From Ranitomeya imitator (Eukaryota), in the NCBI RefSeq assembly GCF_032444005.1, contig NC_091286.1:218302001-218366000 (forward strand): a stretch of 64,000 bases of DNA, given 5' to 3'. The notes beneath the pieces are model-generated. The model worked only from the letters and a program-made list of their open reading frames with translations, was not told the DNA's origin and did not search any database. This document shows, piece by piece, positions 10,750 through 60,501 of this stretch. Each line of letters starts with the position of its first letter. Within the stretch, counting starts at the first letter, position 1. A program made the position numbers and the translations under genes.

Positions 10750-12371
10750 CCACAATTGTAACAAGTGGGTTGCTCCTCTCTGTGAGTGCTTCTCATTTCC
10801 CGTCAAGGCTCCAGACTATTTCTCTCTTCGGGGGGTGCGGTGGTGCTGGGCGTTTCCTCTTGGAGTCAGACAACTCTTTTCGTATGTCCTGGAGTCCCTT
10901 CAGCATTTTGCTCACCCAACTTGGTTCGGTCGCCAGCGCTAGAGATACCTCCCCGCTCCATACCTTCCCCATCAAGGCTGTAATCCCCTGCTCCTGCTCA
11001 TGCGAGCGCGCCTCGACTCCAGCTTCCAGAAAGGTCATGCGCAGATTCACCAATAAGCACTCTCGCAAGACCTGTTTCAACAGCGTATCCCTCAAGCCTG
11101 CCACTAACAGATCTTGCAACACTATATCAGAAGGCCCTATGCCTACGCCATCACGCTTCACAATTATAGTATGAATCTCTTGCAGTGCATTCATGTACTA
11201 AGTCATGGTCTCCCCCTCCCATTGTATATGGCTAAATAACCACATGTGTAATTCTCCAACATCAATAGGGTCTCCCTACATCTCCTCCAGTATTCATAGA
11301 ACCTTGCCGAAGGCCCGTTCAGTGGGGGGCCAGAGCATGACATTGCTCCTCGGTTTCCTGTCTAAAGCCATCACAGCAACCTGTGCCTCTAATGCCAGGG
11401 TCATGGGGTGCATTCTCAACATACCCCTGACCTGCTCAGTCCAGTCCCACAACAGTGTGTTGCTGCCAGTAAATTTGGGGAGGTTACTCAACATTGCCCC
11501 TGTTATGGACCTGGTGGTTAGGAGCACACGGAATGACCTGATGGTTAAACTAACACAGGACAAGCTCTGGGAAGTGGGAGCTCTGCTGACCGCAATCCCT
11601 AATCCTATCATACACACTAGAAATAGCCGTGGAGCGTACCTAACTCTGCCTAGACGCCTCTTCACGGCCTAAGAGCTAACTACCCCTAGAGAAAGGAAAT
11701 AAAGCCTACCTTGCCTCAGAGAAATTCCCCAAAGGAAAAGGCAGCCCCCCACAAATATTGACTGTGAGTTAAGATGGAAGTCACAAACACATGAATGAAA
11801 CAAGTTTCAGCAAAGGGAGGCCAGACTTACTAAACAGACTGAGGATAGAAAAGGTATCTTTGCGGTCAGCACAAAAAACTACAAAAAGACCACGCAGAGT
11901 GTGCAAAAAGACCCCCGCACCGACTCACGGTGCGGAGGTGCCACTCTGCATCCCAGAGCTTCCAGCTAGCAAGGCAAAATCATGATAGCAAGCTGGACAA
12001 GAAAACAATGAACAACAAATAAACTAGCAGGGACTTAGCTTCTGCTTGGGTAGACAGGTCACCAGAAAGATCCAAGAGCGAACTGAACCAGTACTAGAAC
12101 ATAGACAGCTGGCATGGAGTAACGATCTGAGTGGAGTTAAATAGAGCAGCCAGCCAAAGAATAAACTAGGTCACCTGTGGAAGGAACCTCAGAACCAGCA
12201 GCTCCACTCACAGCCACCAGAGGGAGTCCATGGACAGAACTCGCCGAATTTCCATTCATGACCACAGGAGGGAGTCCGATAACAGAATTCACAACATGCC
12301 CCTAAGGATATGCTGAACCTCGAGGCACACCCAACCGCTCGGTCTGCCGCCTCTGTGCCTGTAGTCTGCAT
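10750..12371 (-). pseudogene. PNMA/Ma-type gag of element A, split by a solo LTR
   Basis: ATG at 12371 (MQTTGTEAAD). Removing 11501-12296 plus one 6-bp TSD restores SRFSISLGAMLSNLPKF, colinear with element C PRASLPLRAMFSNLLKF. Confidence 0.8.
11501..12296 (-). mobile_element. Solo LTR of the chromovirus family (796 bp), 6-bp TSD TGCCCC
   Basis: tgttatg...cacaaca termini; homologous to 19813-20615 and 53187-54009; TGCCCC at 11495-11500 and 12297-12302. Confidence 0.92.
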
Positions 12372-13119: not shown

Positions 13120-13925
13120 CAGGGCCGACGTCAGCACCTGGTAAGTGCCGGTGCTCTGAGCAAGCGGAGGAACCCAATCGACGTCGGGGAAACCAGCGTA
13201 CTATGGGTGTCCGGTCGCCTGCGATTGGGCCACCCCACTTGCAATACTTACCTCTCCGCGTCCCCACGCTGCAGCATCTTCTGCATCCTCTGACTGTGAG
13301 TTTCAGGTCAGTGGTGCGTGACGTCACTAGTGTGCATCCTCTGCCTGAGCAGTCACATTGCAGAGAGCCATAAGCTGCTGACGCTGAGGAGCCGGAGCAG
13401 AGCAGTGGCCAGCAAGGAGAGGTGAGTATTTCACTTTTTTATTATTTTTTTTGATGTTTGGAGCATCTTACGGGGCCAATTAAATATGAATCATCTTATG
13501 GGCCAATTACATATTGAGCAGTATATCGGACCCATTTCATATGGAGCATCTTATGGGGCCAATTACATATGGAGCATGTTATGGCGCTCATGATTCTATA
13601 TGGAGCATTATATGGGGCTCATTATACTGTATGGATCAGTAGATGGGGCTCATTATTCTGTATGGAGCACTATGTGGTGCCAATAATACTGTATGGAGCA
13701 ATATATCGGGCTCATTGTTCTTTATGGAGCGCTATGTATTGCAAATAATACTGTAAGGAGGACTATACAGTCCAGGTTATGAGCTATGAGCCAAGTGAAA
13801 TCTTTGGCATTGTACTATACCTATATTTCCCTGCTGTATATGTGCATCATGAATTGTGGTATGTGTTTAAAGGGGCCCAATGAGACTTTATCGCCGGCGC
13901 CCACAAAAACCTGGAGCCAGCACTG
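13120..13925. mobile_element. Non-autonomous hAT element (806 bp), 8-bp TSD ACAATCCC
   Basis: ACAATCCC at 13112-13119 and 13926-13933; imperfect CAG-initiated TIRs; internal tacttacctctcc...ggagaggtgagta symmetry. Confidence 0.85.
13460..13770 (+). repeat. ~32-bp minisatellite (atatggagcatcttatggggcc...) inside the hAT
   Basis: About 9-10 diverged tandem units. Confidence 0.75.
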
Positions 13926-15771: not shown

Positions 15772-15910
15772 ATATAGTATAATGCACCAGATCATCCTAA
15801 ATATAGTATAATGCACCAGATAGTCCTCAATATAGTATAATGTACCAGATAGTCCTCAACATAGTATAATGTACCAGATAGTCCTCAATATTGTATAATG
15901 TACCAGATAG
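15772..15910 (+). repeat. ~29-bp minisatellite (atatagtataatgtaccagatagtcctca)
   Basis: About 5 tandem units. Confidence 0.85.
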
Positions 15911-15914
15911 ACCC

Positions 15915-16885
15915 AGTAGTATAAGGTAGCACCTGCAGGCAGACCCTGTAGTATAAAGCAGCACCCCTATAGGCAGACCCTGTAGTATAAGACAGCACCC
16001 CTATAGGCAGACCCTGTACTATAAGGCAGCACCCTTATAGGCAGACCCTGTAGTACAAGACAGCACCCCCATAGGCAGACCAAGTACTATAAAGGCAGCA
16101 ACCCTATAGGCAGACCCTGTAGTAAAAGGCAGCACCTCCATAGGCAGACCCTGTAGTATAAGGCAGCACCCCAATAGGCAGACCCTGTAGTATAAAGCAG
16201 ACCCCCCATAGGCAGACCCTGTAGTATAATGCAGACCCCCCAAAGGCAGAACCTATAGTATAAGGCAGACCCCCCATAGGCAGACCCTGTAGTATTAGGC
16301 AGACCCCCCATAGGCAGACCCCGTAGTATAAGGCAGACCCCCCAGAGGCAGACCCTGTAGCATTAGGCAGATCCCCCATAGGCAGACCCTGTAGTATTTG
16401 GCAGACCCCCATAGGCAGACCCTGTAGTATAAGGCAGACCACCCCATAGGCAGATCCTGTTGTATTAGGAAGACCCCCCATAGGCAGATCCTGTAGTATA
16501 AGGCAGACCCCCCACAGGCAGACCCCGTAGTATTAGGAAGACCCCCAAAGGCAGACCCTGTAGTATAAGGCAGACCCCCCATAGGCAGACCCTGTAGCAT
16601 TAGGCAGACCCTCCCATAGGCAGACCCTGTAGTATTAGGCAGACCCCCCACAGGCAGACCCTGTAGTATTAGGCAGACCCCCCATAGGCAGACCCTGTAG
16701 TATTAGGCAGACCCCCATAGGCAGACCCTGTAGTATTAGGCAGACCCTCTCCCATAGGCAGACCCTGTAGTATTAGGCAGACTCCCATAGGCAGACCCTG
16801 TAGTATTAGGCAGACCCCCCTCATAGGCAGACCCTGTAGTATTAGGCAGACCCCCATAGGCAGATTGTGTACTATAAGGCAGCAC
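15915..16885 (+). repeat. ~35-bp minisatellite (cccccataggcagaccctgtagtattaggcagac)
   Basis: About 27-28 tandem units with no unique spacers. Confidence 0.92.
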
Positions 16886-18185
16886 CTCTTAAAAAAATAA
16901 ATAAATACTCACCTCTTCTTCCTGGTTCCTGTGCTGCTCTGAGCTCCCGCTCGCCTCGGCGCCGGGCAGTGACTCATTGCATTCCCTGTCAGCGTCGCCG
17001 ACGTCAGACGCTGACAGGGGGATGATGGGGGAAGGAGCGCAGCCCAGTGCTCCTTCCCTCATCATTGCGGTCAGCTGTATCGGCTAAATGTTACTGTAGC
17101 GTAGCTCCGGGTGGGCCCCCCTCAGAGCAACAGCCCCGGGGCGTCCACACCCTCTGCCCCCCCGGTAGCTACGCTACTGAATGTAAGTATTGATGTCCAT
17201 GGATTTTTTATTTTTTTTGTCTACATAGTGTTTTGCTCATAACAAGTTTAATTTTTCTTCTCTGTTTTTTTCTGTAGTGTTTCACTTGACTGCTGCCTGC
17301 TTTACCAATTTGTCCTCCTCCAGTGAAGCCTCCTAGAGTGAACTTGACCCTGATTACATAATCATTTTTGATATACTGATTGGTATGTATTGAATGGCAA
17401 TACTATAAATGTGGTAAATCCTGTATTTTCAGATACCTTCCGGTGTGGAAGAGCAGGAGCAGTCGAGTGGAATTAAGCTTCCCAGGGTAGTTGGACTCAA
17501 GTTTCTGAGGAGGAAAGACGGGGTGTAAGTATTCTTTTCATCAGAGTTGTAATAGAATTTGTTTGCAGCTTTACTTAAAAATCTTTTTTTCAATTTGATC
17601 TATAGGTTCCACAAGGGGAAGAAGCCATCTTGGAAATTGACAAAAAAATTCTGTTGGTAAATATTGCCAGAAATTCTGTTGGTAAGTATTGCAATGTGGT
17701 CTGACATGGCAGTGAACCTGTTAATGTATGTGCATTGTTTTCCAATTAATTTTTTCCTTTTTTTACCCCTTCACAGTGAAGAGAATCAAAATCTGCTGGC
17801 GTTACGTGAAGGACCGCTTCAACAAGGACATCAGAGAGGATATTCGGGTTCAAAGCGGTGCTGCTCAAAGGTTAAGAAAATATAAATACCACCGCATCCT
17901 TGGTTTTCTGAGGCCTGCGCTTGCTCAGTGAACGTAAGTATCTTTTGCGGGGTTTTTTGTTTTTTTTTGTTTTACTAATGTTTTGCTTTTATCTTTCACA
18001 CAGAACCTGGTGCAGCACAGCACAACCTGGATCATCCTCTGTTGAAGCGGCCCCTCATCGACCAGCCAACAAACATACGCAGTCCCAAACATCCACCAGC
18101 GATAAAGCGACCTGGCAGGCTTCACAGGCTGGGGAACATGCAGCTGGTCCATCTGGTTTTCCCCTCTACCAGCCCTCTTCCTCTG

Positions 18186-19812
18186 CTTTACGTCTGAAAT
18201 ACGCTTCTGGCATGGTGGTCACTTGTGATCGAGTATCGATCAAGCAACGGACAGCTCACCCATTCACTTCAACTCAGACAGTAGGGCTCGTGGAAACTAG
18301 ACATTCAGGACTACCTTCTCTCCTCTTTGGCCTATCCGGCTCCAGGTGGCTTCCCCCAGCCACAGAGCCCACTAGTTTAAGGCTGCCGAGGTAGGGACTG
18401 CCCCCACCTCACACATCCTTGGGCATAGTGTCCAGTATTTCCACACTTAAAACAAGTCGGACTCCATTCTGTACAGGTTGGTCCCACTCTCTGGTGAGGT
18501 TCGATGAACAAGCTGGACTCCGAATCACTCCAGTCTGTAGGCACATCTTGGGCTGTGGGGGGGCTCTTCTTAGGCCAGACCACTCTTCCCGCATTTCTCG
18601 TATTTCCCTCCGGATCTCCCGGAACCTCTCTGGCTCAGCAGCGGGCGAGGTGGGTACCTCATTGCTCCAGACCATCCCTGCCAAAGCTGCTGTCCCTTGC
18701 TCCTGCTTCCTCACGCGTGCTTCCGCCCCAATCTCTAGGAACGTCATGCGCGGATTGGTACACAGGCGCTCCCGCAAAGCTTGCTTAAGCAACGCATCCC
18801 AGAGGCCCACCACAAATTGGTCCTTCCATATCACATCAGGAGTCCCCACTCCTATTGCTCCCGACATCATCCCGCTTAGCAATAGACGCGTGCACCTCCT
18901 GTAACGCATTCATGTATTGGGTCGCTGATTCCCTCTCCCTCTGGACACGGCGAAACAATCACATCTGCAATTCCTCGACATCAGTGGGATCTCCATGCAT
19001 CTCTTCCAAAATTTGCAACACCTCAGTCAGAGTGTCCCGGTTATGCGGGGCCCGAAACATTACAGAACATCTAGCCACCCCATCCAGGGCCTTCACAGCA
19101 ATCTCCTCTTGCATAGCAGGGGTCATAGGGCGCATCCTCAACATGCCTTTAACCTGCTCAGTCCAGTCCCATAGCATTATATTGCTCCCTGTGAATTTCA
19201 GGAGATTGCTAAACATGGCCCTCAGCGGCAAGCTGGCCCTCGGGGCATTCACGACCGATTGGTCTGCAGCCTCTGCGTTCATGGATTGCATCCTGCTGAC
19301 TACGCTAAGTTTAAGTAGGTACCGGGATGCAGTAACACAGGGAAGACAAAGCAAGGGTTAACAATAATGCAATTTAATTATAACAATAGGGAAAACTCGC
19401 AGGGAGACAAGTTAACAAAGGAAATTGTAATATAACACAGCAGTCTTGGTATGAAACTTATCGTGACTCCTAAATTCCTCAGATGCATGTAGTCCAGTGG
19501 GGATGGTAGTCCCTGCAACAGCTGGCACAGTGTCTTCAGGTGTCACCCGCCCATACATGAACAAGCTTCTGGCAGCAACGGGCGGTCTCTGGTTTTGCCC
19601 GCTGAGCCCCTAGTCCATTTATCTGTGCAACAAAAGTGCTGGGAAGGGTTGCTACAAAGGTCTCTGTCCTATGCGTGCTCCACTGCATGCCTCTGAAAGA
19701 TGGGGAGAACACCACAGGATCCAGCACCTGTCACCTGCTTCTCAATGCGAGCACCGCACTGCTTAGTGGAGCGCCCGACGCTATGCACTGTCACTAACTC
19801 CCGGGGGCCCTC
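18186..19812 (-). mobile_element. Decayed Ty3/Gypsy element C (leader, PNMA-like gag with zinc knuckle, start of protease)
   Basis: gag from ATG 19291 (MQSMNAEAAD...LWDWTEQVKGML), frameshifted; CFKCGNTGHYAQGC CCHC knuckle; protease CLIDTRSQVTTMPEAYFRR; truncated at ~18186. Confidence 0.85.
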
Positions 19813-20615
19813 TGTTATGACAGGCAATTCAGTAACACAATGTACATAGCGATCAGAGCACATACAGTGATCTGACAATAACCCAAAATAATAGAACGAG
19901 CTCTGAGACGTGGAAACTCTGTAGACCGCAATTCCTGATCCTCTCCAAACACAACTAGAGGCAGCTGTGGATTGCGCCTAACGCTCCCTATGCAACTCGG
20001 CACAGCCTGAGAAACTAACTAGCCTGAAGATAGAAAAATAAGCCTACCTTGCCTCAGAGAAATACCCCAAAGGAAAAGGCAGCCCCCCACATATAATGAC
20101 TGTGAGTAAGATGAAAAGACAAACGTAGGGATGAAATAGATTCAGCAAAGTGAGGCCCGATATTCTAGACAGAACGAGGATAGGAAAGATAACTTTGCGG
20201 TCTACACAAAACCCTAAAGAAAACCACGCAAAGGGGGCAAAAAGACCCTCCGTACCGAACTAACGGCACGGAGGTACACCCTCTGCGTCCCAGAGCTTCC
20301 AGCAAAACAAATAGACAAGCTGGACAGAAAAAATAGCAACAAATAGCAAAGAAGCACTTAGCTATGCAGAGCAGCAGGCCACAGGAATGATCCAGAGAAA
20401 CACAAGTCCAACACTGCAACATTGACAGGAAGCATGGATCAAAGCATCAGGTGGAGTTAAGTAGAGAAGCAGCTAACGACCTCACCAGATCACCTGAGGG
20501 AGGAAACTCAGAAGCTGCAGTACCACTTTCCTCCACAAACGGAAGCTCCCAGAGAGAATCAGCCGAAGTACCACTTGTGACCACAGGAGTGAACTCTGCC
20601 ACAGAATTCACAACA
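19813..20615 (-). repeat. 3' LTR (803 bp)
   Basis: tgttatg...cacaaca termini; direct repeat of 24814-25587. Confidence 0.95.
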
Positions 20616-23600
20616 GTACCCCACCCTTGAGGAGGGGTCACCGAACCCTCACCAGAGCCCCCAGGCCGACCAGGATGAGCCACATGAAAGGCACGAACAA
20701 GATCGGGAGCATGGACATCAGAGGCAAAAACCCAGGAATTATCTTCCTGAGCACAACCCTTCCATTTAACCAGATACTGGAGTTTCCGTCTTGAAACACG
20801 AGAATCCAAAATCTTCTCCACAATATACTCCAATTCCCCCTCCACCAAAACCGGGGCAGGAGGCTCAACAGATGGGACCATAGGTGCCACGTATCTCCGC
20901 AACAATGACCTATGGAATACGTTATGTATGGAAAAAGAATCTGGAAGGGTCAGACGAAAAGACACAGGATTAAGAACCTCAGAAATCCTATACAGACCAA
21001 TAAAACAAGATTTAAACTTAGGAGAGGAAACCTTCATAGGAATATGACGAGAAGATAACCAAACCAGATCCCCAACACGAAGTCGGGGACCCACACGGCG
21101 TCTGCAATTAGCGAAAAGTTGAGCCTTCTCCCGGGACAAGGTCAAATTGTCCACTACCTGAGTCCAAATCTGCTGCAACCTGTCCACCACAGTATGCACA
21201 CCAGGACAGTCCGAAGACTCAACCTGTCCTGAAGAGAAACGAGGATGGAACCCAGAATTGCAGAAAAATGGCGAAACCAAGGTAGCCGAGCTGGCCCGAT
21301 TATTAAGGGCGAACTCAGCCAAAGGCAAAAAGGACACCCAGTCATCCTGATCAGCAGAAACAAAGCATCTCAGATATGTTTCCAAGGTCTGATTGGTTCG
21401 TTCGGTCTGGCCATTAGTCTGAGGATGGAAAGCCGAGGAAAAAGACAAGTCAATGCCCATCCTACCACAAAAGGCTCGCCAAAACCTCGAAACAAACTGG
21501 GAACCTCTGTCAGAAACAATATTCTCTGGAATGCCATGCAAACGAACCACATGCTGGAAGAACAAAGGCACCAAATCAGAGGAGGAAGGCAATTTAGACA
21601 AGGGTACCAGATGGACCATCTTAGAAAAGCGATCACAGACCACCCAAATGACTGACATCTTTTGAGAAACGGGAAGGTCAGAAATAAAATCCATAGAGAT
21701 ATGTGTCCAAGGCCTCTTCGGGACCGGCAAGGGCAAAAGCAACCCACTGGCACGAGAACAGCAGGGCTTAGCCCGAGCACAAATCCCACAGGACTGCACA
21801 AAAGTACGCACATCCCGCGACAGAGAGGGCCACCAAAAGGATCTAGCCACTAACTCTCTGGTACCAAAGATTCCAGGATGACCAGCCAACACCGAACAAT
21901 GAAGTTCAGAGATAACTCTATTCGTCCACCTATCAGGGACAAACAGTTTCTCCGCTGGGCAACGATCAGGTTTATTAGCCTGAAATTTTTGCAGCACCCG
22001 CCGCAAATCAGGGGAGATGGCAGACACAATTACTCCTTCCTTGAGGATACCCGCCGGCTCAGATAAACCCGGAGAGTCGGGCACAAAACTCCTAGACAGA
22101 GCATCCGCCTTCACATTTTTAGAGCCTGGAAGGTACGAAATCACAAAGTCAAAATGGGCAAAAAACAACGACCAACGAGCTTGTCTAGGATTCAAGCGCT
22201 TGGCAGACTCGAGATAAGTCAAGTTCTTATGATCAGTCAATACCACCACGCGATGCTTAGCTCCTTCAAGCCAATGACGCCACTCCTCGAATGCCCACTT
22301 CATGGCCAGCAACTCTCGGTTGCCCACATCATAATTTCGCTCAGCAGGCGAAAACTTCCTGGAAAAGAAAGCGCATGGTTTCATCACTGAGCAACCAGAA
22401 CCTCTCTGTGACAAAACAGCCCCTGCTCCAATCTCAGAAGCATCAACCTCGACCTGGAACGGAAGAGAAACATCTGGTTGACACAACACAGGGGCAGAAG
22501 AAAAACGACGCTTCAACTCTTGAAAAGCTTCCACAGCAGCAGAAGACCAATTGACCAAATCAGCACCCTTCTTGGTCAAATCGGTCAATGGTTTGGCAAC
22601 ACTAGAAAAATTGCAGATGAAGCGACGATAAAAATTAGCAAAGCCCAGGAACTTTTGCAGACTTTTCAGAGATGTTGGCTGAGTCCAATCATGGATGGCT
22701 TGGACCTTAACCGGATCCATCTCGATAGTAGAAGGGGAAAAGATGAACCCCAAAAATGAAACCTTCTGCACACCAAAGAGACACTTTGATCCCTTCACAA
22801 ACAAAGAATTAGCACGCAGGACCTGAAAAACCGTTCTGACCTGCTTCACATGAGACTCCCAATCATCCGAGAAGATCAAAATGTCATCCAAGTACACAAT
22901 CAGGAATTTATCCAGGTACTCACGGAAGATGTCATTCATAAAGGATTGAAACACTGATGGAGCATTGGCAAGTCCGAACGGCATCACTAGATACTCAAAA
23001 TGACCCTCGGGCGTATTAAATGCAGTTTTCCATTCATCGCCTTGTCTGATTCTCACCAGATTATATGCACCACGAAGATCTATCTTAGTGAACCAACTAG
23101 CCCCCTTAATCCGAGCAAACAAATCAGATAACAATGGCAAGGGGTACTGAAATTTAACAGTGATCTTATTAAGAAGGCGGTAATCTATACACGGTCTCAG
23201 CGAACCATCCTTCTTGGCTACAAAAAAGAACCCTGCTCCTAATGGCGACGATGACGGGCGAATATGCCCCTTCTCCAGGGATTCCTTCACATAACTGCGC
23301 ATAGCGGTGTGCTCAGGCACGGATAAATTAAACAGTCGACCTTTTGGGAATTTACTACCAGGAATCAAATTGATAGCACAATCGCAATCCCTATGCGGAG
23401 GCAGGGCATCGGACTTGGGCTCATCAAATACATCCCGGTAATCAGACAAGAACTCTGGAACCTCAGAAGGGGTGGATGACGAAATTGACAGAAATGGAAC
23501 ATCACCATGTACCCCCTGACAACCCCAGCTGGACACCAACATGGAATTCCAATCCAATACTGGATTATGGGCTTGTAGCCATGGCAACCCCAACACGACC

Positions 23601-24676
23601 ACATCATGCAGATTATGCAACACCAGAAAGCGAATAACCTCCTGATGTGCAGGAGCCATGCACATGGTCAGCTGGGTCCAGTATTGAGGCTTATTCTTGG
23701 CCAAAGGTGTAGCATCAATTCCTCTCAATGGAATAGGACACTGCAAGGGCTCCAATAAAAACCCACAACGTTTAGCATAATCCAAGTCCATCAAATTCAG
23801 GGCAGCGCCTGAATCCACAAACGCCATGACAGAATACGACGACAAGGAGCATATCAAGGTAACGGACAGAAGAAATTTTGACTGTACCGTACCAATGGCG
23901 GCAGACCTAGCGAACCGCCTAGTGCGCTCAGGACAATCAGAGATAGCATGAGTGGAATCACCACAGTAGAAACACAGCCCATTCAGACGTCTGTGTTCTT
24001 GCCGTTCAACTCTGGTCATAGTCCTATCGCACTGCATAGGCTCAGGTTTAATCTCAGGTAATACCGCCAAATGGTACACAGATTTACGCTCACGCAAGCG
24101 TCGACCGATCTGAATGGCCAAAGACATAGACTCATTCAAACCAGCGGGCATAGGAAATCCCACCATGACATCCTTAATGGCTTCAGAAAGACCCTTTCTG
24201 AAAATGGCTGCAAGCGCAGATTCATTCCATTGAGTGAGCACGGACCATTTTCTAAATTTCTGGCAATATAGCTCTATCTCATCCTGAGCCTGACAAAGAG
24301 CCAGCAAATTTTTTTCTGCCTGATCTACTGAATTAGGCTCATCGTACAGCAATCCAAGTGCCAGGAAAAACGCATCGATATCACTCAATGCAGGATCTCC
24401 TGACGCAAGAGAAAATGCCCAGTCCTGAGGGTCGCCACGCAAAAAAGAAATGCCGATCCTAACCTGTTGCGCTGGGTCACCAGAGGAGCGAGGTTTCAAA
24501 GCCAGAAACAGTTTACAATTATTCTTGAAACTCAGAAATTTAGTTCTATCTCCAAAAAACAAATCTGGAATAGGAATTCTCGGTTCTAACAAAGAATTCT
24601 GAACCACAAAATTTTGAATATCTTGAACTCTTGCCGTGAGCTGATCCACACATGAAGACAGACCTTTAATGTCCAT
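20447..24676 (-). CDS. Gag-Pol polyprotein (1409 aa from ATG 24676): gag, CCHC, protease, RT, RNase H, integrase, chromodomain
   Basis: Single uninterrupted ORF: CFYCGDSTHAISDC; FVDSGA; YLDDIL; DASEIGAGAVL, TDHKNL, ADALSR; HCSVLAGH..CGIC; MDFI, SDRGSQF, QTERTN; YIVEKILDSR...YLVKWKG..EDNSW. Confidence 0.96.
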   Translation of the reverse strand: MDIKGLSSCVDQLTARVQDIQNFVVQNSLLEPRIPIPDLFFGDRTKFLSFKNNCKLFLALKPRSSGDPAQQVRIGISFLRGDPQDWAFSLASGDPALSDIDAFFLALGLLYDEPNSVDQAEKNLLALCQAQDEIELYCQKFRKWSVLTQWNESALAAIFRKGLSEAIKDVMVGFPMPAGLNESMSLAIQIGRRLRERKSVYHLAVLPEIKPEPMQCDRTMTRVERQEHRRLNGLCFYCGDSTHAISDCPERTRRFARSAAIGTVQSKFLLSVTLICSLSSYSVMAFVDSGAALNLMDLDYAKRCGFLLEPLQCPIPLRGIDATPLAKNKPQYWTQLTMCMAPAHQEVIRFLVLHNLHDVVVLGLPWLQAHNPVLDWNSMLVSSWGCQGVHGDVPFLSISSSTPSEVPEFLSDYRDVFDEPKSDALPPHRDCDCAINLIPGSKFPKGRLFNLSVPEHTAMRSYVKESLEKGHIRPSSSPLGAGFFFVAKKDGSLRPCIDYRLLNKITVKFQYPLPLLSDLFARIKGASWFTKIDLRGAYNLVRIRQGDEWKTAFNTPEGHFEYLVMPFGLANAPSVFQSFMNDIFREYLDKFLIVYLDDILIFSDDWESHVKQVRTVFQVLRANSLFVKGSKCLFGVQKVSFLGFIFSPSTIEMDPVKVQAIHDWTQPTSLKSLQKFLGFANFYRRFICNFSSVAKPLTDLTKKGADLVNWSSAAVEAFQELKRRFSSAPVLCQPDVSLPFQVEVDASEIGAGAVLSQRGSGCSVMKPCAFFSRKFSPAERNYDVGNRELLAMKWAFEEWRHWLEGAKHRVVVLTDHKNLTYLESAKRLNPRQARWSLFFAHFDFVISYLPGSKNVKADALSRSFVPDSPGLSEPAGILKEGVIVSAISPDLRRVLQKFQANKPDRCPAEKLFVPDRWTNRVISELHCSVLAGHPGIFGTRELVARSFWWPSLSRDVRTFVQSCGICARAKPCCSRASGLLLPLPVPKRPWTHISMDFISDLPVSQKMSVIWVVCDRFSKMVHLVPLSKLPSSSDLVPLFFQHVVRLHGIPENIVSDRGSQFVSRFWRAFCGRMGIDLSFSSAFHPQTNGQTERTNQTLETYLRCFVSADQDDWVSFLPLAEFALNNRASSATLVSPFFCNSGFHPRFSSGQVESSDCPGVHTVVDRLQQIWTQVVDNLTLSREKAQLFANCRRRVGPRLRVGDLVWLSSRHIPMKVSSPKFKSCFIGLYRISEVLNPVSFRLTLPDSFSIHNVFHRSLLRRYVAPMVPSVEPPAPVLVEGELEYIVEKILDSRVSRRKLQYLVKWKGCAQEDNSWVFASDVHAPDLVRAFHVAHPGRPGGSGEGSVTPPQGWGTVVNSVAEFTPVVTSGTSADSLWELPFVEESGTAASEFPPSGDLVRSLAASLLNST

Positions 24677-24802
24677 TGTAACACCTGTGTCCTGAACCAC
24701 CCAAATGTCTAGGGGAAAAAAAAGACAAATCACAGTGCAAAGGAAAAAAAAATGGTCTCAGAACTTCTTTTTTCCCTCTATTGAGAATCATTAGTACTTT
24801 TG

Positions 24803-24811
24803 GCTTCCTGT
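24803..24811 (-). promoter_or_regulatory. Non-tRNA primer-binding site (ACAGGAAGC), candidate self-priming site
   Basis: Begins 2 nt after the 5' LTR; no TGG; exactly complementary to GCTTCCTGT in the LTR (plus-strand 25426-25434). Confidence 0.7.
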
Positions 24812-24813
24812 AC

Positions 24814-25587
24814 TGTTATGACAGGCAATTCAGTAACACAATGTACATAGCGATCAGAGCACATACAGTGATCTGACAATAACCCAAAATAATAGAACGA
24901 GCTCTGAGACGTGGAAACTCTGTAGACCGCAATTCCTGATCCTCTCCAAACACAACTAGAGGGAGCTGTGGATTGCGCCTAACGCTCCCTATGCAACTCG
25001 GCACAGCCTGAGAAACTAACTAGCCTGAAGATAGAAAAATAAGCCTACCTTGCCTCAGAGAAATACCCCAAAGGAAAAGGCAGCCCCCCACATATAATGA
25101 CTGTGAGTAAGATGAAAAGACAAACGTAGGGATGAAATAGATTCAGCAAAGTGAGGCCCGATATTCTAGACAGAACGAGGATAGGAAAGATAACTTTGCG
25201 GTCTACACAAAACCCTAAAGAAAACCACGCAAAGGGGGCAAAAAGACCCTCCGTACCGAACTAACGGCACGGAGGTACACCCTCTGCGTCCCAGAGCTTC
25301 CAGCAAAACAAATAGACAAGCTGGACAGAAAAAATAGCAACAAATAGCAAAGAAGCACTTAGCTATGCAGAGCAGCAGGCCACAGGAATGATCCAGAGAA
25401 ACACAAGTCCAACACTGGAACATTGACAGGAAGCATGGATCAAAGCATCAGGTGGAGTTAAGTAGAGAAGCAGCTAACGACCTCACCAGATCACCTGAGG
25501 GAGGAAACTCAGAAGCTGCAGTACCACTTTCCTCCACAAACGGAAGCTCCCAGAGAGAATCAGCCGAAGTACCACTTGTGACCACAG
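24814..25587 (-). repeat. 5' LTR, outer end truncated
   Basis: Matches the 3' LTR up to ...gtgaccacag, then diverges into unrelated sequence; no TSD. Confidence 0.93.
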
Positions 25588-27638: not shown

Positions 27639-27919
27639 TTTTTTTATTTTTTTTTTATTTAATAGGTTTTTATTAAAGTCGAATATGAACAATACAATTT
27701 ATGCATTTTTCCATTATTTTACAAAATTTTTACATTTTCCAAATCCCCAACAATCCCAACAAAACCCGAACCTCCCCCTCCCCTGACAGCTCATACCCAT
27801 TTATACTTTTGTTACCAGTATGGATGGTTCTTTGAGCCATTTGACTCACTTATGTCCGCTTGTTCCTTTAGCACTCTCTTCCTTTCAGAGGCCCTCATCC
27901 TCCCATTTCCCATAACTAC

Positions 27920-30900
27920 TCATCCTAGCTCGAGCCACGGAGACCACATTTTGTCAAACGTTTCTATTTTCCCACGTCTTTTGTAGACCCCCTTTTCCAA
28001 ATTGAGACCATGTTTAACATATTTCAGAAATTCACCCCTTGTAGGCGGTTCCTCCTTGATCCAGTTCCTTGCTATTACCTTCCTTGCCATATATAATAGC
28101 CTAGCTATTGCTATCTTCCAGGTGTTGTCCACTCTAATTTCCTCTACATGTCCCAGTATACACACTATCGGATCTCTCGGCACTCTGCATTTATACGCCC
28201 CTTCCACACGGCTCATTACCACCAACCAGAAAGCAACCAGTCTTGGACATGTCCACATCATGTGGTATATTCCTGCATTCTCAGTTTTACATCTCGGGCA
28301 CTCAGAGTCAGCACGCAACCCCGCTCTGCACAACACTTCCGGTGATTTATAGACTCTGTGCAAGATGTACAGCTGCGATAGTCTATACAGCTCGCTCAGT
28401 GACACTCGTGGAACCCACTCCAACACCGACTCCCAGGTTTCATCCTCCATTGGGCCTAAATCTCTTTCCCATTTCGCTCTTGCTTTTAGGGGGAAGTCTA
28501 GCAAATATGCATGTAGAAGGTCCTTATAAAGGGTGGTAATGACTCCCCTTGTGGATCCTTCCCCACACACGTATTCCAGAACTATGTCCTCCTGGATCTC
28601 AATACCACCGCCCTTGTTTTGAGCTTTAAAAGCATGTTTCATCTGAGCATATTGATACTCCCCAGTCGGTCTCAATCCAAACTCCCCTTGCAGCTGCGAA
28701 AAGGACTTTAATCCTCGTTGTTGAACTATCTGAGCCACCAAGTGGATTCCTTTGGCCTGCCACTCCGCCAGCACTCCAAGGGCCGCAAACTCAACCAAAT
28801 TATTATTAAGCCATATTGGTGTAAATTTAGTCAGCCCGAATCTGTCGCAGTCTGGTCCATAATTTATGTATCAAAAACATAGTTGGGTATAATTTCCCCA
28901 ATACTTTCAAGGTGCCATCCTCCAAACACTGCGCCACCGGTCGTCAGTCCGTCACCCTCTCCATCAAGTGCTGTACCGCACTGGCAGACGCCTCCCGCGC
29001 CCAGCCCTTCAAATGCTGGCTCTGGGCTGCAAGAAAATATAACTCAGGATTGGGTAAAGCCAATCCTCCATCTTCCTTGGGTCGCTGAAGCGTCTCCAGG
29101 CGAATACGTGGGTACCGCCTCCCCCATATCAGACTTCTAAAAAGAGCACTAATCTGCCGGAATTTCCCACGTGGAATCCAAACTGGCGCATTATGTAGGA
29201 CGTAAAGTAATTTGGGCATCAGAACCATTTTAATGAGATTAACCCTACCCACCACCGATAAGTGCAATTTATTCCACGCATCCACTTTTGCTTTAAGGGC
29301 GCCCATGAGAGGTGTCAAATTCCTATACAAAAACTCTGTAACTGGCATCGAGATCCATATTCCCAGGTATTTGAAAAGGGATGCCACCTTAAGCCGCCCC
29401 TCTCCCAATGGCTCACTTCTGCTCTCCTCCACCCCACCCACCTCAAAGAGGACCGATTTATCCCAATTTATCCTCAGTCCCGACAAGTCTCCAAATTTCC
29501 CAATGATCTCGATAGCCCCATTCAAGGCTTCATCAGGGTCCGCCAGGAACAGTAAGATGTCATCTGCATATAACGCGATCTTCTCCTCAACACTCCCATA
29601 TCTGAACCCAGGGACCTCATCCGATTGTCGTATCTTGGCGACCAGTGGCTCCACAGCTAAGGCAAACAGAAGGGGCGACAGTGGGCAACCCTGCCTCGTA
29701 CCTCTGGCCAACTTTATAGGCTGAGAGAGTTCCCCATTCACTCTAATTCTAGCTGTTGGTAGTGAATATAACAGTTGAGTCCACGCCACAAATTGTGGAC
29801 CAATACCCATACACTTCAACACCCGCCAGAGATATCCCCACTCCACACTGTCAAACGCCTTATGGGCATCCAAGGACGCAATAACCCTTCGGCCACAGTT
29901 GTCAGACTTCAGCTGCAGGTTCATATGCAGCCTCCGCAGATTAACCGCTGTAGACCTGTCAGGCATAAAACCAGACTGATCTGGATGTACAAGGTTAGCA
30001 ATGACGCTGGACAAACGGGTAGCTAACACCTTGGCCAAGAGCTTGACATCGATGGTTAACAGAGAGATTGGCCGATATGACTCAGGCTTCCCCAGATCCT
30101 TATCCTCCTTCGGAATAACCACTATAGTGGCCTCCCTCATAGATGCTGGGAGATACCCTTGGCGTCCAGCCTCCTCCAGTACCAACTTTAATCTAGGAAT
30201 CAGCACTTCCCCCAAACTTTTATAGATTTCAGCTGGTAACCCATCGACCCCAGGTGCTTTCTCATTGGCCATAGACTTCAGCGCCCGACTCAGTTCCTCC
30301 TCGGTGATAGGGGCATCGAGGCTCACCCTATCCTCACTCAATTTCGGAAGACCCAGACTCTCAAGGAAAGTCTCCGTATCTCCGGCTGACTCATTGACCC
30401 TGGAGGAATATAAGTCCGCGTAGAAGTCCGCAAAGACCTTTATAATTTCAGGTGTTTCAAATACCCTGCTCCCCCCATCCGAAACCAACGAGTGCACATA
30501 CGAGGTACTACGCTGAGCCGCGACTACCACCGATAGCATGTGACCCACTGTTTCTCCCTCCTGAAAATAAGCCACCCTCTGAAACTCCCGCTTCCTTTCA
30601 GCTTTTCCCAGCAGAATCTTTTCCATACAATTTTGCGCTATTCTCAGCCTTTTCTCTGCTTCGGAAGTCCCCAGCACTACCATCTCGTCCTCTGCGGCTT
30701 TCAGCTCCTCCATCGCCACCCTCTCCGCCTCCCTTGTCCTCCTCTTAAGGTACTGTCACACTAGACGATATCGCTAGCGATCCGTGACGTTGCAGCGTCC
30801 TCGCTAGCGATATCGTCCAGTGTGACAGGCAGCAGCGATCAGGCCCCTGCTGGGAGATCGCTGGTCGGGGAAGAAAGGCCAGAACTTTATTTCATCGCTG

Positions 30901-32401
30901 GACTCCCCGTAGACATCGCTGAATCGGCGTGTGTGACACCGATTCAGCGATGTCTTTGCTGGTAACCAGGGTAAACATCGGGTAACTAAGCGCAGGGCCG
31001 CGCTTAGTAACCCGATGTTTACCCTGGTTACCATCCTAAAAGTAAAAAAACAAACAGTACATACTTACCTACAGCCGTCTGTCCTCCAGCGCTGTGCTCT
31101 GCACTCCTCCTGTACTGGCTGTGAGCGTCGGTCAGCCGGAATGCAGAGCGGTGACGTCACCGCTCTGCTTTCTGGCTGCCCGGCGCTCACAGCCAGACCA
31201 GAGAAGCAGAGCGCCGAGGACAGACAGCAGAAGGTAAGTATGTAGCGTTTGTTTTTTTACTTTTTAGGATGGTAACCAGGGTAAACATCGGGTTACTAAG
31301 CGCGGCCCTGCGCTTAGTTACCCGATGTTTACCCTGGTTACCGGGGACCTCGGGATCGTTGGTCGCTGGAGAGCTGTCTGTGTGACAGCTCTCCAGCGAC
31401 CAAACAGCGACGCTGCAGCGATCCGTATCGTTGTCGGTATCGCTGCAGCGTCGCTATGTGTGACGGTACCTTTACACCTACTAATGTCTCTAAATAGTAA
31501 CCCTCTCAGGAACGATTTCATTGCATCCCAAACAGTTAGAACATCTGCACTCCCATCATTTAAAGCAAAGAATTCCGTCACCTCCTTCCCTATACCGTCC
31601 AAGTCAATACTCTGTAACCAGTTAGGATGGATCTTCCATTCTCTCCCACTTTGCGGTCCGTGTCCCCAACAACCTAACCTCCACCTCAATTGGACTGTGA
31701 TCCGAAAGGGCCCTCGACAGATAACGCACCTCTCCCACCATTGTGTCCAACAGGCGGTTACCCAGCGCCATATCAATTCTGGATAGAGTAGCATGAGCCG
31801 GCGAGTAGCACGAGTACCCTCTCTCCCCAACATGTCTAACTCTCCATAGATCAATCATGCCTATTTCATGCACATAGGTACCAAATGTTGTAGTGTGCCC
31901 CTCCGACCTGTTCTGGGTGTTCTTATTTTTATCCCAAAAGTCGTCACAGATATTGTTCAAATCCCCAATAATTAAAAGTGGTAGTGGTTCCCATCGTTCC
32001 ACCTTCTCCAACACCTCCCTGATCTTCTTACTTGAATATGGAGGTGGAATATACATTGCCGCAACACACAATCTCACTCCATACAATATACATTGTATCA
32101 CCACATACTGACCCTCAGCATCCACGCATACTTTCACCTCTTCATACTGCACTCCCATCGGCACCAACACTGACACCCCTCTTGAGTACGTCGAAAAGGT
32201 AGAATGATACCCTTTCTGTATCCACCGTCTATTCAGTACATCCACTTTCTCCTGTATCAAGTGCGTCTCTAACAAGCATATCATAGAAGCCCGCTGATCC
32301 TTCGCATACTGCAAGCTCGCAGCTCTTCTTGACTTATCCGCCAGACCGCTCACATTCCAACTCAATATCTTAAAGCGGTCTCCTATTATGTGACTCATCA
32401 T
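27920..32401 (-). pseudogene. L1 ORF2 (APE endonuclease, RT, C-terminal Cys-rich), disrupted
   Basis: ILSWNVSGL, IGDLN, SDHSP; YRPISLL, GTRQGCPLSPLLF, YADD; CPRC...HMMWTC. MITE at 30748-31471, nonsense codon at 28944-28946, frameshift near 28830. Confidence 0.93.
30748..31471. mobile_element. Harbinger-type palindromic MITE (724 bp), TTA TSD
   Basis: TIR aggtactgtcacac / rc aggtaccgtcacac; TTA at 30745-30747 and 31472-31474; removal restores ORF2 (DISRCKRRTREAERVAMEEL). Confidence 0.93.
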
Positions 32402-32838
32402 CTTTAATTATGTCGTTACTCCCGATTCTGAGCTGTCTAACTTCCCTCCCCACCCTTACCCCCCCCTCCCCCACACCCCCCAATACTATACATTCTGCCT
32501 CTTATCAAGAGTGGGGCACCATCACCCATTGCGAACACTCTTGTTAGCGTAACCTTCTCCTTCCGCCTCCCGCTACCGTTTATAACAGAATTCGGCGCAA
32601 GTCTTAGAAGAACAATATAATTCAACCTGTATTACATTACAACTACAAGAAACTAAATAAACTTTAGTACGCTGCACACCCTTCCTCCCTCGTACTTCTC
32701 CGCCGTATCAGCACTCCCAGTGCATTCCCTGAATAATACCCAACCTGCACATTTCAATTATCAATGTACTGTCAGTCAAACTCTTTTTCTCCTTTTTAAA
32801 AGAATTAAAATACCTCCCGACTAACCCACCCCACATTT

Positions 32839-33906
32839 TCAATCTCCTTTCCCTTTAAGCTTTTTAGCGTTAAGATCTATCCACTGGGTAGCGTCCTCCG
32901 GCGTCTGGAAAAAATGAATCTTATCCAACGCTACCACTCTCAGTCGTGCCGGAAACATCATGGAGTACTGCACTCCCAGTTCTCTCAGCCGTCTCTTGAT
33001 ACCCGTGAACATCATCCGTTGTTTCTGTACCAGGGCGGAATAGTCAGGGTAAATAGCAATTCTTTGACCTCCAATTGTCAGATCCGTCATGTCTCTAGCC
33101 TTCCTCAGGATAATGTCTCTGTCTCTGTAGTTTAGGATTTTGGCAAGCATGGTACGGGGACTTGCTCCAGGGACAGGTGGTTTCGGTGGGACCCTGTGGG
33201 CTCTTTCTACCGCAAATACTTTTGTCAGTGCTGCATCACCAAAAGTCTCAAGGAGCCAACTTTCAATATACTCCGTGGGATTCCTCCCCTCAGTTTTTTC
33301 AGGGATACCCACTATACGAATGTTATTTCTTCTGGACCTATTCTCCAGATCCTCATTTTTTGCAGCCAGCTCCGATATTGCCTGAGTAAACTTCCTCTCC
33401 GCTTTCTGCAGCTGCACTATATGGTCTTCTGCAGTGCTCACTCTTTCCTCCACAGCCCCCACACGTTTGTCAATCTTCTGCAGGGCTGCATTTATCTGGG
33501 CTGTATCCCCCTTGACCTCCTGTATCTGCTGGGTAAGGGATTGTTTGCATGATGATACCAGTGCAAAGACATCTCTAAGGGTGGGCTCTGCTCCTGACTC
33601 CTTATCTTCAGGTCCCCCTACTACCACCGCCATGTCACCATCCCTGCTCCCCTGTTGTACCTCCTGCTCCTCTGCTGGGCTTTCCTCCTCTCCTTCTGTG
33701 TCTGTGTCTGCTCCGGCGTCCTCCTCTGCTTTTCCTGTGTTCCCTGCGGCCTCCACTCTAGCAAACTGCTGGAGCTTTGCCGCCGCCGCCGCCATTCTCT
33801 TCTGGCATGCCGCGTTGTCCTTCTCCGCCTTCTCTCTGGCGTCGGCGCCATCTTGGCTGATCCCAGCCTCGCCGGCTCCTGCATCTCTTTGCCTCCTCCT
33901 GGTCAT
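32839..33906 (-). CDS. L1 ORF1p (355 aa; coiled coil, RRM, CTD), intact
   Basis: EDLENRSRRNNIRIVGIPE, ERAHRV, IAIYPDYS, YSMMFPARLRV motifs; no stops. Confidence 0.92.
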   Translation of the reverse strand: MTRRRQRDAGAGEAGISQDGADAREKAEKDNAACQKRMAAAAAKLQQFARVEAAGNTGKAEEDAGADTDTEGEEESPAEEQEVQQGSRDGDMAVVVGGPEDKESGAEPTLRDVFALVSSCKQSLTQQIQEVKGDTAQINAALQKIDKRVGAVEERVSTAEDHIVQLQKAERKFTQAISELAAKNEDLENRSRRNNIRIVGIPEKTEGRNPTEYIESWLLETFGDAALTKVFAVERAHRVPPKPPVPGASPRTMLAKILNYRDRDIILRKARDMTDLTIGGQRIAIYPDYSALVQKQRMMFTGIKRRLRELGVQYSMMFPARLRVVALDKIHFFQTPEDATQWIDLNAKKLKGKGD

Positions 33907-34078
33907 ATTTATTGACCTCGGGGCCGCCTCTATACACCGCCGCACTCCCGGGACTCTCCTGCAGCCGGTACGCGCCTTGAATCGCCACTCAGCTGCGGCT
34001 TATAAGGATAATGTCAGCGTTAGCAGCGGGAGCGCTCTATCACCCGTCCGCTCACATGGACGTTCAGGCCACACCCCC

Positions 34079-35923
34079 CACCCAGGCATTCTTACCCTAC
34101 TTTTCCCTCAAACATCTCAGAGGGGCATGGCCTGACACTAGCTTAAACCTAAAGCCTAGCAGGTAACATTTCAGAGTATCTACTGCCCGTTTTATGGCTA
34201 AGCACTCCTTCTTGACAATGGCATAGTTTCTCTCGAAAGAAGAGAGCTTCCAGCTCAGATACAGGATGGGATGTTCTTCCTCATTTATTTCTTGAGACAG
34301 CACGGCTCCAAGGCTGACTTTTAACGCATCTGTCTGGACCACTAATTTTTTGCTGAAGTCCAGTGCAATCAAAACTGGATGTTTACACAAATACCGCTTT
34401 AGCTCCTGGAACGCCATCTCAGTCTCAGCAGTCCATTTAATCACCGTTGATTTGATGTCTTTAAGAAGATCCATCAAAGGTGTTGCAAAAACTGGGGATA
34501 TACCGATGGTAATATTCCACAATTCCAAAAAACACCCTCACTTGCTTCTTGGAAAGCATTTGTGGCCACTTCTGAATCACCTCAACCTTGCTTATTTGTG
34601 GCTTGATTTCACCTCATGACATAGCCTAAGTACTTGGCCTCTTCCTTCCCTATGGTACATTTTTTCGGGTTTATGGTGAACCCTGCATTTCTCAACACAT
34701 CCAGCATAACCTGTACCTTTGGTAGCTGATTACCCCAGTCAGGGATAAAGAACACAATGTCATCTAGGTAGGCCACAGCATACTTATGCAAAGCTAGGAT
34801 CAGATCCATAGCCCTCTGGAAGGTTGCTGGGGCCCCCTGAAGTCCGAATGGCATTCTGATGTATTGTAAACACCCATCAGGTGTCGAGAAGGACATCTTC
34901 TCCTTGGCACTCTGGGACATGTGGATCTGCCAGTAGCCCTTCGTCAGTTCGATGGTTGTAACATACATCGCAGTTCCAAATCTTTCATAGAGTTCGTCCA
35001 CTCAATGCATTGGATACGCATCACAACTGGAGACCTCATTTAGCCTGCGGTAGTCATTACAAAACCGCCATGCACCATCGGGCTTTGGCATGAGGACAAT
35101 GGGACTTGACCATTCACTTTTTGACTCCTCTATCACCAGGGGGTCTAGCATTCTCTTCACCTCATTTGACATTACCTCCTGTTGTGCCTCGGGAATTATA
35201 TAGGGCTTGAGGTTCACCCTTACATGTGGCTCTGTCAATACGCCATGCTACACCACCTGCGTATGACCTGGCAACTCAGAGAACAGGTCCCGTTTCCGCT
35301 GCAACAGCTCCTGACACCGTTGCCTCTGGGCCAGCATTAGAGTCTCTGCAATTGTGACATTGTCCACTGTGGCTTTAGGACTAGCTCCCAGGCAAGTGGT
35401 TTCCAGTGATTCCAGATCACGCCAGAGCTTGAGCAAGTTCACATTATATATTTTGTGTATATAGCTTCCTTCGACCTGCCTGGTGTACCTTGTAATTCAC
35501 CTCACCCAGTTTTTCCACCACCTCGTATGGGCCTTGCCACTTGGCTAGGAACTTGCTCTCCACCGTTGGGATAAGCACTAGCTCGTGGTCCTCAGGCTGG
35601 AAGTGCCTCAGCATCACTGATTGGTTATACACCTTTTGGCCCCTATGCCTGGAAAAACTGCGCCTTTACGATAGGCATTACTTTCATCATCCTCTCCTGT
35701 AACTGGGCGACATGCCTTATGATGCTCTGGTGTGGTATGACCTCGGCTTCCGAGGTTTCCTTGGCGATTTCCAGGAGCCGTCGCAGATGGCGACCACTCA
35801 AGAGCTCGATCGGCGAGAAGCCAGTGGAGTCTTGAGGAACTTCTCTGATGGAGGAAAATAGAAATGGAAGCAGATAGTCCCAGTTTTGACTGTCCTTCTC
35901 AATGACCTTTTTGAGCATGGCCT
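34079..35923 (-). mobile_element. Gmr1-type Ty3/Gypsy pol remnant with IN-RT-RH order
   Basis: Minus strand: IN tail (WDYLLPFL..REVPQDSTGFSP; AKWQGPYEV; HVNLLK), then RT (WSSPIVLMPKPDG..FCNDYRRLN; YLDDIV), then RNase H (QTDA..LGAVLSQ; ECLAIK). Frameshifted. Confidence 0.9.
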
Positions 35924-53186: not shown

Positions 53187-54009
53187 TGTTATGACCTGGT
53201 GGTGAGGACAATACTGGACCTGGTGGTTAAGAGCACACGGAATGACCTGATAATTACTAATAATACAGGACAAGCTCTGAGACGTGGGAACTCTGCTGAC
53301 CGCAATCCCTAATCCTATCACACACACTAGAAATAGCCGTGGATTGCTCCTAACGCTCCCTATGCAACTCGTCACAGCCTAAGGAACTAGCTAGCCCTAG
53401 AGATAGAAAAATAAAGCCTACCTTGCCTCAGAGAAATTCCCCAAAGGAACAGGCAGCCCCCCACATATAATGACTGTGAGTTAAGATGAAAATTACAAAC
53501 ATAGAGATGAAATAGATTTAGCAAAGTGAGGCCCGACTTACTGAACAGACAGAGGATAGGAAAGGTAACTTTGCGGTCAGCACAAAAAACTACAAAAAGA
53601 CCACGCAGAGGGCGCAAAAAGACCCTCCGCACCGACTCACGGTGCGGAGGCGCTCCCTCTGCGTCCCAGAGCTTCCAGCAAGCAAGACAAAAATCAAAAT
53701 AGCAAGCTGGACAGAAAAAATAGCAAACAGAGAAAAACAAGCAGGAACTTAGCTTCTGCTGGGAAGACAGGTCACAAGAACGATCCAGGAGCGAACTAGA
53801 CCAATACTGGAACATTGACAGGTGGCAAGGAGCAATGATCTAGGTGGAGTTAAATAGAGCAGCCAGCTAACGAATTAACCTCGTCACCTGTGGAAGGAAC
53901 CTCAGAAGCCGCAGCCCCACTCACAACCACCAGAGGAAGCCCATGGACAGAACCAGCCAAAGTACCATTCATGGCCACAGGAGGGAGCTTAACAACAGAA
54001 TTCACAACA
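53187..54009 (-). mobile_element. Solo LTR of the chromovirus family (823 bp), 6-bp TSD GAATTG
   Basis: tgttatg...cacaaca; GAATTG at 53181-53186 and 54010-54015. Confidence 0.93.
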
Positions 54010-60050: not shown

Positions 60051-60501
60051 GAAGGGCTGATTCTTAGGAAGGAAGGCTGTCGGAAAGAAGCAGGGCGCGT
60101 CCGAGGGTGATTATATTCTTATTAGGTATATACTCACCCTCGGACGCGCCCTGCTTCTTTATTTGTAATGAATGTTTATTTGCAATGTGGTTTTGACTTA
60201 CTCTATTTTTTTGGTAAATAATGATTTTATTATTTTCATTGTTTTGCATCTTCTTGGCAATAATATAAAGAAGACGCGACAGGACAACACTCGGTGGATG
60301 CCACATCTGTGTTTTAAATTGAAAAAAACTTTCAGTTAACTACTTGCAGGAGAAAGTTATTGTAGCTGGTGGCCATTTTTAGTACTGTACCAGATTTTTG
60401 TTGTATGTGTTTGTTTTTAATGTTAAAATGTCTGCATTTGATATCTCTCCAGTATTTTCTTTTTTATAAGCAAAATACTTATTTTTATATTTTCTGATGT
60501 T

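Follow-up and report, generated by a model that had tools for sequence, protein, structure and literature searches.

We identified, in a 64,000-nucleotide stretch of Ranitomeya imitator DNA (the window), a minus-strand LTR retrotransposon that very likely primes minus-strand synthesis with the first 9 nt of its own RNA and not with a tRNA. It belongs to the Ty3/gypsy chromoviruses, within the vertebrate Tf1/sushi lineage, and is labelled here as family or subfamily W. We regard self-priming as likely because the pairing of the predicted primer with the primer-binding site (PBS) persists through 12 covarying sequence types. Self-priming of vertebrate Tf1/sushi elements has already been proposed in print, and the new point here is the covariation of primer and PBS: among the papers listed by literature searches, which did not extend to subscription papers, none mentions in its title or abstract a covariation test in vertebrates or a cap copy in a PBS. 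A near-invariant C after the PBS may in addition, on evenly balanced evidence, be a DNA copy of the m7G cap.

The window element

The following features of the window, all on the minus strand, are needed for the argument.

24814..25587, minus strand: 5' LTR of 774 bp, from which the first 29 nt of U3 are missing, as is the target-site duplication upstream of it (from the LTR alignment; the upstream flank is unrelated)
25458..25464, minus strand: TATA-like box TACTTAA (TATTTAA in sister subfamilies, TATATA or TATAAA in distant families), its putative function suggested by its position
25426..25434, minus strand: predicted self-primer GCUUCCUGU, the predicted first 9 nt of the genomic RNA, which covaries with the PBS in 12 types
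24812..24813, minus strand: 2-nt spacer GT from the LTR end to the PBS, mirroring the AC between the polypurine tract (PPT) and the 3' LTR
24803..24811, minus strand: PBS ACAGGAAGC, not of tRNA type, the exact complement of GCTTCCTGT
24802..24802, minus strand: C that follows the PBS almost without exception and faces the predicted m7G cap
20447..24676, minus strand: single gag-pol ORF of 1409 aa, with Gag (CCHC), protease, RT, RNase H, integrase, SH3 and chromodomain
20616..20628, minus strand: PPT with TAC spacer; the G-run is interrupted in the window copy
19813..20615, minus strand: 3' LTR, 803 bp, TGTTG...TAACA
11501..12296, minus strand: solo LTR of sister subfamily A, with the primer-position 9-mer GCCAGCTGT at 12113, TATTTAA at 12143 and the 6-bp target-site duplication (TSD) GGGGCA
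53187..54009, minus strand: solo LTR of sister subfamily B, with the primer-position 9-mer GCCACCTGT at 53826, TATTTAA at 53856 and the 6-bp TSD CAATTC

The initial annotation had pointed to a tRNA-independent arrangement at the 5' LTR, and its description was accurate. The minus strand reads GT-ACAGGAAGC-CAA after the LTR, with no TGG: the LTR end ...TCATAACA lies at 24814, GT at 24813-24812 and ACAGGAAGC at 24811-24803. The complement GCTTCCTGT stands inside the LTR (plus-strand positions 25426-25434), its G 30 nt away from TACTTAA as counted from the first T of that box (25464), and both solo LTRs carry TATTTAA (12143 and 53856). In the window copy the match between ACAGGAAGC and GCTTCCTGT is exactly 9 nt, with no extension on either side. 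LTR pairs fixed the element ends, with a 2-nt spacer before the PBS and AC between the PPT and the 3' LTR; both W cDNA ends would therefore read ACTGT.

Chromovirus traits are present throughout the element, which has TG...CA LTR ends, a PPT and the order gag-PR-RT-RNase H-IN. A profile search placed a chromodomain at the integrase C-terminus (PF00385, aa 1311-1358 of the stop-to-stop ORF, above cut-off). The catalytic motifs of RNase H are present in the ORF, and the enzyme is predicted to cleave the primer. The closest relative with a solved structure is Ty3 Gag-Pol. The ORF runs through the PPT into the 3' LTR, where its stop codon TAA adjoins the TATA-like box, and two other uninterrupted copies share this layout; since the length of the PPT G-run differs among copies, their integrase tails must differ too. 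Gag-pol is a single ORF in subfamilies W and A (1444-1456 aa from stop to stop), and family F has Gag and Pol in separate frames.

The insertion is young, as had been proposed, because only 2 of 775 aligned bases differ between its 5' and 3' LTRs. Its further description as potentially active applies to the family but not demonstrably to the window copy: the ORF is uninterrupted and retains all catalytic motifs, but the 5' LTR is truncated, the PPT G-run is interrupted and 31-33 amino acids differ from two other uninterrupted copies. Among full-length W copies, 2 of 14 have an uninterrupted gag-pol. The retrotransposon group is extremely abundant, with 120,000-128,000 first-look candidates in each Gag search of the genome. 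The exact 32-nt junction of LTR end, PBS and leader has 3,158 genomic matches, a variant with one base changed (CC in place of CA after the PBS) has 741, and a reversed control pattern has none.

Primer and PBS covary

From 180 loci we kept 130 5' LTRs, including that of the window, after setting aside 38 solo or 3' LTRs (used as a control), 6 duplicates and 6 loci without a locatable LTR end. Three Gag searches with more distant queries added further families, each with its own primer/PBS pair. In 100 of the 130 copies, the 9 nt that start at LTR end +2 have a perfect complement within the 800 nt before them; by family, perfect pairing was found in 27/30 (W), 9/14 (A), 5/8 (B), 16/28 (C), 8/10 (D), 8/10 (E), 27/28 (F) and 0/2 (G). 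Background and control were far lower: of 13,000 9-mers taken at leader offsets 15-114, 31 (0.24%) were matched by a complement in the 800 nt before them, as were 2 of the 38 control flanks. Other offsets gave 0-2 matches each, except +1 (18) and +3 (27), which are overlapping 10-nt matches. The 30 copies without a perfect complement comprise 17 with 1-2 mismatches and 13 without a locatable R site.

Copies within one family are not independent; the independent unit is therefore the primer/PBS type. Eleven types occur in the 130-copy set, and a twelfth, GCCTCCTGT/ACAGGAGGC, occurs in 7 copies. Across the 12 types, primer positions 2-8 (7 of the 9 letters) vary yet stay paired, while G1 and the final U are invariant; in family F the primer is 10 nt long. 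The two solo LTRs of the window allowed a prediction, in that their 9-mers GCCAGCTGT and GCCACCTGT called for the PBSs ACAGCTGGC (A) and ACAGGTGGC (B), and full-length A and B copies were then found to carry them. Of 113 located primer sites, 107 have a TATA-like box at a distance of 30-31 nt, under a loose TATA pattern that was written after the sequences had been seen and that allowed sites within a 16-nt range. The spacer from the LTR end to the PBS is GT in 105 copies, TT in 22 and another dinucleotide in 3 (n=130), and no TGG follows the LTR in the located 5' LTRs. Taken together, the proposal of self-priming with a primer of about 9 nt is strongly supported by compensatory covariation across at least seven families of this genome and in fish-like relatives.

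Variation within W counts in part against this pattern. All 26 copies with a changed seventh PBS base in a W context were examined: 7 are compensated, 10 stand over an unchanged W-type R and 1 over a B-type R, with the remainder over other R variants (5) or without R (3). The uncompensated variants (at most 26 against 3,158) may reflect decay after insertion. Self-complementarity was also examined in 35 metagenome loci with sufficient upstream DNA. Four of them, which group with fish proteins, have 10-nt pairs of three further types, each then followed by C; nine distant loci have 11-12-nt pairs, and one has a TGG-type PBS without a self-complement.

We also folded the leader from the predicted start. 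The primer/PBS helix reached a probability of 0.85-1.0 per pair in the window copy and at least 0.67 in 6 of the 8 folded copies, with 0.4 and 0.01 in the other two; these values stand without a shuffle control. The predicted duplex has 9 bp and -13.9 kcal/mol. W alone has a predicted 8-bp hairpin at the U5 end.

The C after the PBS

The PBS is followed by C in 128 of the 130 copies, in 100 of 100 listed junction copies and in all four fish-like relatives, and the next base is variable. This C usually has no genomic partner, because T stands before the primer (position -1) in 99 of the 100 copies with perfect pairing and throughout 10 of the 11 types, yet C follows the PBS in 99 of those 100. 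Reverse transcriptases can insert C opposite an m7G cap. We consider it about an even chance that the extra C is such a cap copy, made when the capped primer is copied into the PBS. In Tf1, about half of the cDNA has the PBS copied into DNA at its 3' end, according to an excerpt of PMC11042837.

Under an explanation that we place somewhat below even, self-priming would operate but the C would be either an inherited base under selection, for pairing or stacking with the cap or for a tenth pair with a genomic G, or a non-templated addition by RT. Older W lineages do have a G before the primer (18 of 43 baseline copies), with which the C can pair, and the Tf1 RT is reported in part of PMC11042837 to put non-templated bases on most cDNA 3' ends. 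Against both variants stands the constancy of the C opposite T at -1, with a variable base next to it.

The cap copy makes a prediction that we tested, namely that CC should arise where transcription begins at a G one base earlier. A G at -1 was found in 23 of 27 CC copies with a locatable R (from the first 30 of 741), compared with the 18 of 43 baseline copies (first listed of 3,158); the Fisher p of 0.0004 is inflated by kinship. The weighted frequency of CC is about 30% in G(-1) lineages and about 5% in T(-1) lineages, making it roughly six times commoner with an upstream G, which argues against a C that is merely inherited or non-templated. We also placed CC on a tree built from the LTRs of 69 copies, excluding 3 that lack R and 1 with a B-type LTR. 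It requires 18 changes there, where shuffles require 21, and strong branches force at least 5 of the 18. No linkage with CC was seen for any of the 9 LTR variants shared within the main G lineage. Because CC is scattered over the tree without a linked variant, the base after the C appears to have been rewritten repeatedly.

Other observations favor the inherited or error-prone alternative. Subfamily B has 3,912 CC copies against at most 235 CA copies, despite T at -1 in 25/29 and 22/26 copies; because B is mostly CC with T at -1, the CC state can be inherited and flips in about 5% of cases without a G. These flips in T(-1) lineages go in both directions (in W and in B) and suggest that the second position, at the boundary of a C/A run, is error-prone anyway. 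Nine distant relatives that are fungal- or plant-like vary in the base that follows the longest complement: 5 have C, 3 have T and 1 has A.

Two stricter formulations were rejected. A universal cap rule for all Tf1/sushi elements fails in the distant relatives, which vary (C in 5/9), and a rule of CC only with G at -1 fails in A and B, which are mostly CC with T at -1.

For vertebrate self-priming chromoviruses, the evidence leaves at even strength a broader model in which the capped primer would be copied back in each cycle, cap included. The PBS and its C would then form a heritable record of the parent's start site and m7G cap, preserved in thousands of copies across the genome, start shifts would appear as CA/CC variants, and primer and PBS would co-evolve by templating and not by paired mutations.

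Other origins of the pairing

A primer of the same sequence could come from elsewhere, either from a second RNA molecule in trans or from the internal copy of R at the RNA 3' end. The 9-mer is in both LTRs, and sequence covariation is blind to cis versus trans. An internal R copy, however, has sequence upstream, so pairing and copying should pass G1 into the T at -1; instead, the complement ends at G1 and C follows. An internal source would also need two cuts, and priming in trans by the 5' end of another RNA amounts to the same mechanism. We consider this origin improbable.

It is less plausible still that a host tRNA, tRNA fragment or other small RNA primes synthesis while the helix between R and PBS serves a structural role in packaging, dimerisation or translation control. 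The duplex is indeed short (9 bp, -13.9 kcal/mol), and the tRNA screen covered part of the anuran set, namely 197 tRNA genes from the same genome in 5 anticodon types (Lys, Cys, Gly, Ile). Within that set, none of 11 primers shares more than 6 nt of its 3' end. Moreover, the PBS lacks TGG, 12 PBS sequences would need 12 host RNAs that each match their own family's R by coincidence, and the helix sits exactly at the required priming start.

A chance match between the PBS and an LTR 9-mer, which a single 9-mer achieves within 800 nt in 0.24% of trials and for which many places were scanned, is refuted because primer and PBS covary, with compensatory change in 12 types, a sharp peak at offset +2 and a fixed distance from the TATA-like box.

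A proposed priming cycle

Self-priming by the W element can be laid out as four steps, which differ in what they draw on. Pol II would start at a G located 30 nt after the TATA-like box, which in W is a weak variant; from this spacing we infer G25434 as the transcription start. Nucleotides 1-9 of the RNA would then pair with the PBS about 620 nt downstream, a complementarity that is plain in the DNA and predicted for the RNA. By analogy with Tf1, RT/RNase H would cut after U9, and the freed 3' OH would be extended over the GT spacer and U5, giving a cDNA with ACTGT at both termini and a minus strand beginning ACTGTTATGA. Finally, the pattern of C suggests that the capped primer may stay on the cDNA and be copied by plus-strand synthesis, so that the PBS would be rewritten in each cycle, R changes would be carried into it and a C would be added opposite the cap. 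Such rewriting from a retained primer would explain the easy origin of compensated types.

Relation to known elements

The closest named proteins come from dendrobatid frogs (up to 98% identity), followed by other amphibians and fish. The RT-RNase H stretch is 60-64% identical to proteins named Ascaphus, Xenopus, Cyprinus, Labeo and Esox. A quick RT tree of 42 rows, which contained no named sushi, Amn or Tf1 reference and lacked family E (no RT match), placed W inside a vertebrate set of 32 rows (support 88) with Xenopus, Ascaphus and fish proteins. A scan of viral contigs found no relatives of the W element. W shares its chromodomain and its amphibian and fish RT grouping with the vertebrate Tf1/sushi elements (the GyDB V-clade, with sushi-ichi and Amn-ichi/ni/san). 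Butler 2001 is reportedly the cited source for self-priming in the Tf1/sushi group. W LTR ends loosely fit the Sushi motifs TGTYANR/CNTNACA given in an excerpt of PMC3601003. Amn-san is described, in the accessible part of PMC4131045, as the most abundant LTR group in frogs and as the commonest LTR elements in Xenopus tropicalis.

The earlier statements about Tf1 and its group agree with the literature as far as the accessible text goes. In Tf1, the first 11 RNA bases pair with the PBS and RNase H cuts between bases 11 and 12 (PMC7175516), and pairing of the self-primer with the PBS and the RNase H cut also appear in PMC5341516, matching the annotation's account of priming from the first ~11 nt. 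That self-priming had already been proposed for the whole group is likewise borne out by portions of three papers, which describe it as common among Tf1/sushi elements and as involving a three-duplex pretzel (PMC10085805), or give its range as 'from yeast and vertebrates' (PMC6317226) or as 'from fungi to vertebrates' (PMC4600332).

Like Tf1/Tf2 of S. pombe (and Tj1, Tosmo1-3 and Tcry1), the frog elements have a chromodomain integrase and, right after the 5' LTR, a PBS complementary to the RNA 5' end, which here is a predicted one; W also has a single ORF, as do Tf1/Tf2. Unlike that of Tf1, the frog primer has 9-10 nt and not 11, and the loop is 400-640 nt. The two side helices of the pretzel, which Tf1 requires, were not found: constrained local folds gave z of -1.9 to +1.4 in 17 copies, a method that can miss short pseudoknotted helices, and duplex searches in 19 copies gave no consistent partners for them. 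W Gag carries a CCHC motif, whereas the fission-yeast elements are described without one in the accessible part of PMC10085805. The TSD of the W/A/B clade is 6 bp, in contrast to 5 bp in Tf1-like yeast elements. Tf1/sushi elements outside yeast mostly use a -1 frameshift according to the same part of PMC10085805, whereas W and A have one ORF and F has two. In Tcn1-clade chromoviruses of plants (moss and club-moss), self-priming was predicted from sequence in 83% of elements; this clade differs in its 5-bp TSD in 100%, its two ORFs and its hosts (both from an excerpt of PMC6317226).

Target duplications, tandems and neighboring repeats

In W/A/B the TSD is 6 bp long and often of the form G/C....C; 15 of 16 full-length pairs have an exact one, and so do 11 of 17 solo LTRs. 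Sister families C, D and F show an exact 5-bp TSD in 7 copies and a 6-bp TSD in none. Head-to-tail tandem copies 5.0 kb apart, with one shared LTR that has a PPT before it and a PBS after it, occur at C1:134215711-134230742 and also at C1:48795575, 61917148 and 118874175; they resemble the Tf1/Tf2 tandems made without integrase that are described in an excerpt of PMC11042837. In an array at C1:57236959 with a 4.53-kb period, each LTR is preceded by sequence other than a PPT, and this array resembles a segmental duplication.

In the window, the W element and the solo LTR of subfamily A both lie inside decayed, same-orientation Gag-like frames of another retroelement type (18300-19812 and 10500-11500). 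Judged from translations, a broken LINE-like element spans 27900-34100 on the minus strand, with ORF1-like (32839-33999), endonuclease-like (31622-32407) and RT-like (28944-30755) parts. Tandem repeats are present at 15860-16890 (34 nt), 60500-62014 (243 nt), 2900-3340 (36-45 nt) and 13570-13750 (31 nt).

Implications

Experimental proof of self-priming comes, according to the literature, from fission yeast only, and vertebrate cases have been deduced from single sequences. Finding 12 covarying pairs within a single frog genome, from families that have thousands of recent copies, makes the vertebrate case much firmer and pins the primer down to the base. If the extra C is a cap copy, genomic DNA by itself would reveal the start-site use of a retrotransposon, and one could test what becomes of the self-primer, a question left open in Tf1. 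For these frogs, self-priming would mean that a major driver of genome growth works without tRNA and may lie beyond the reach of PBS silencing by tRNA fragments.
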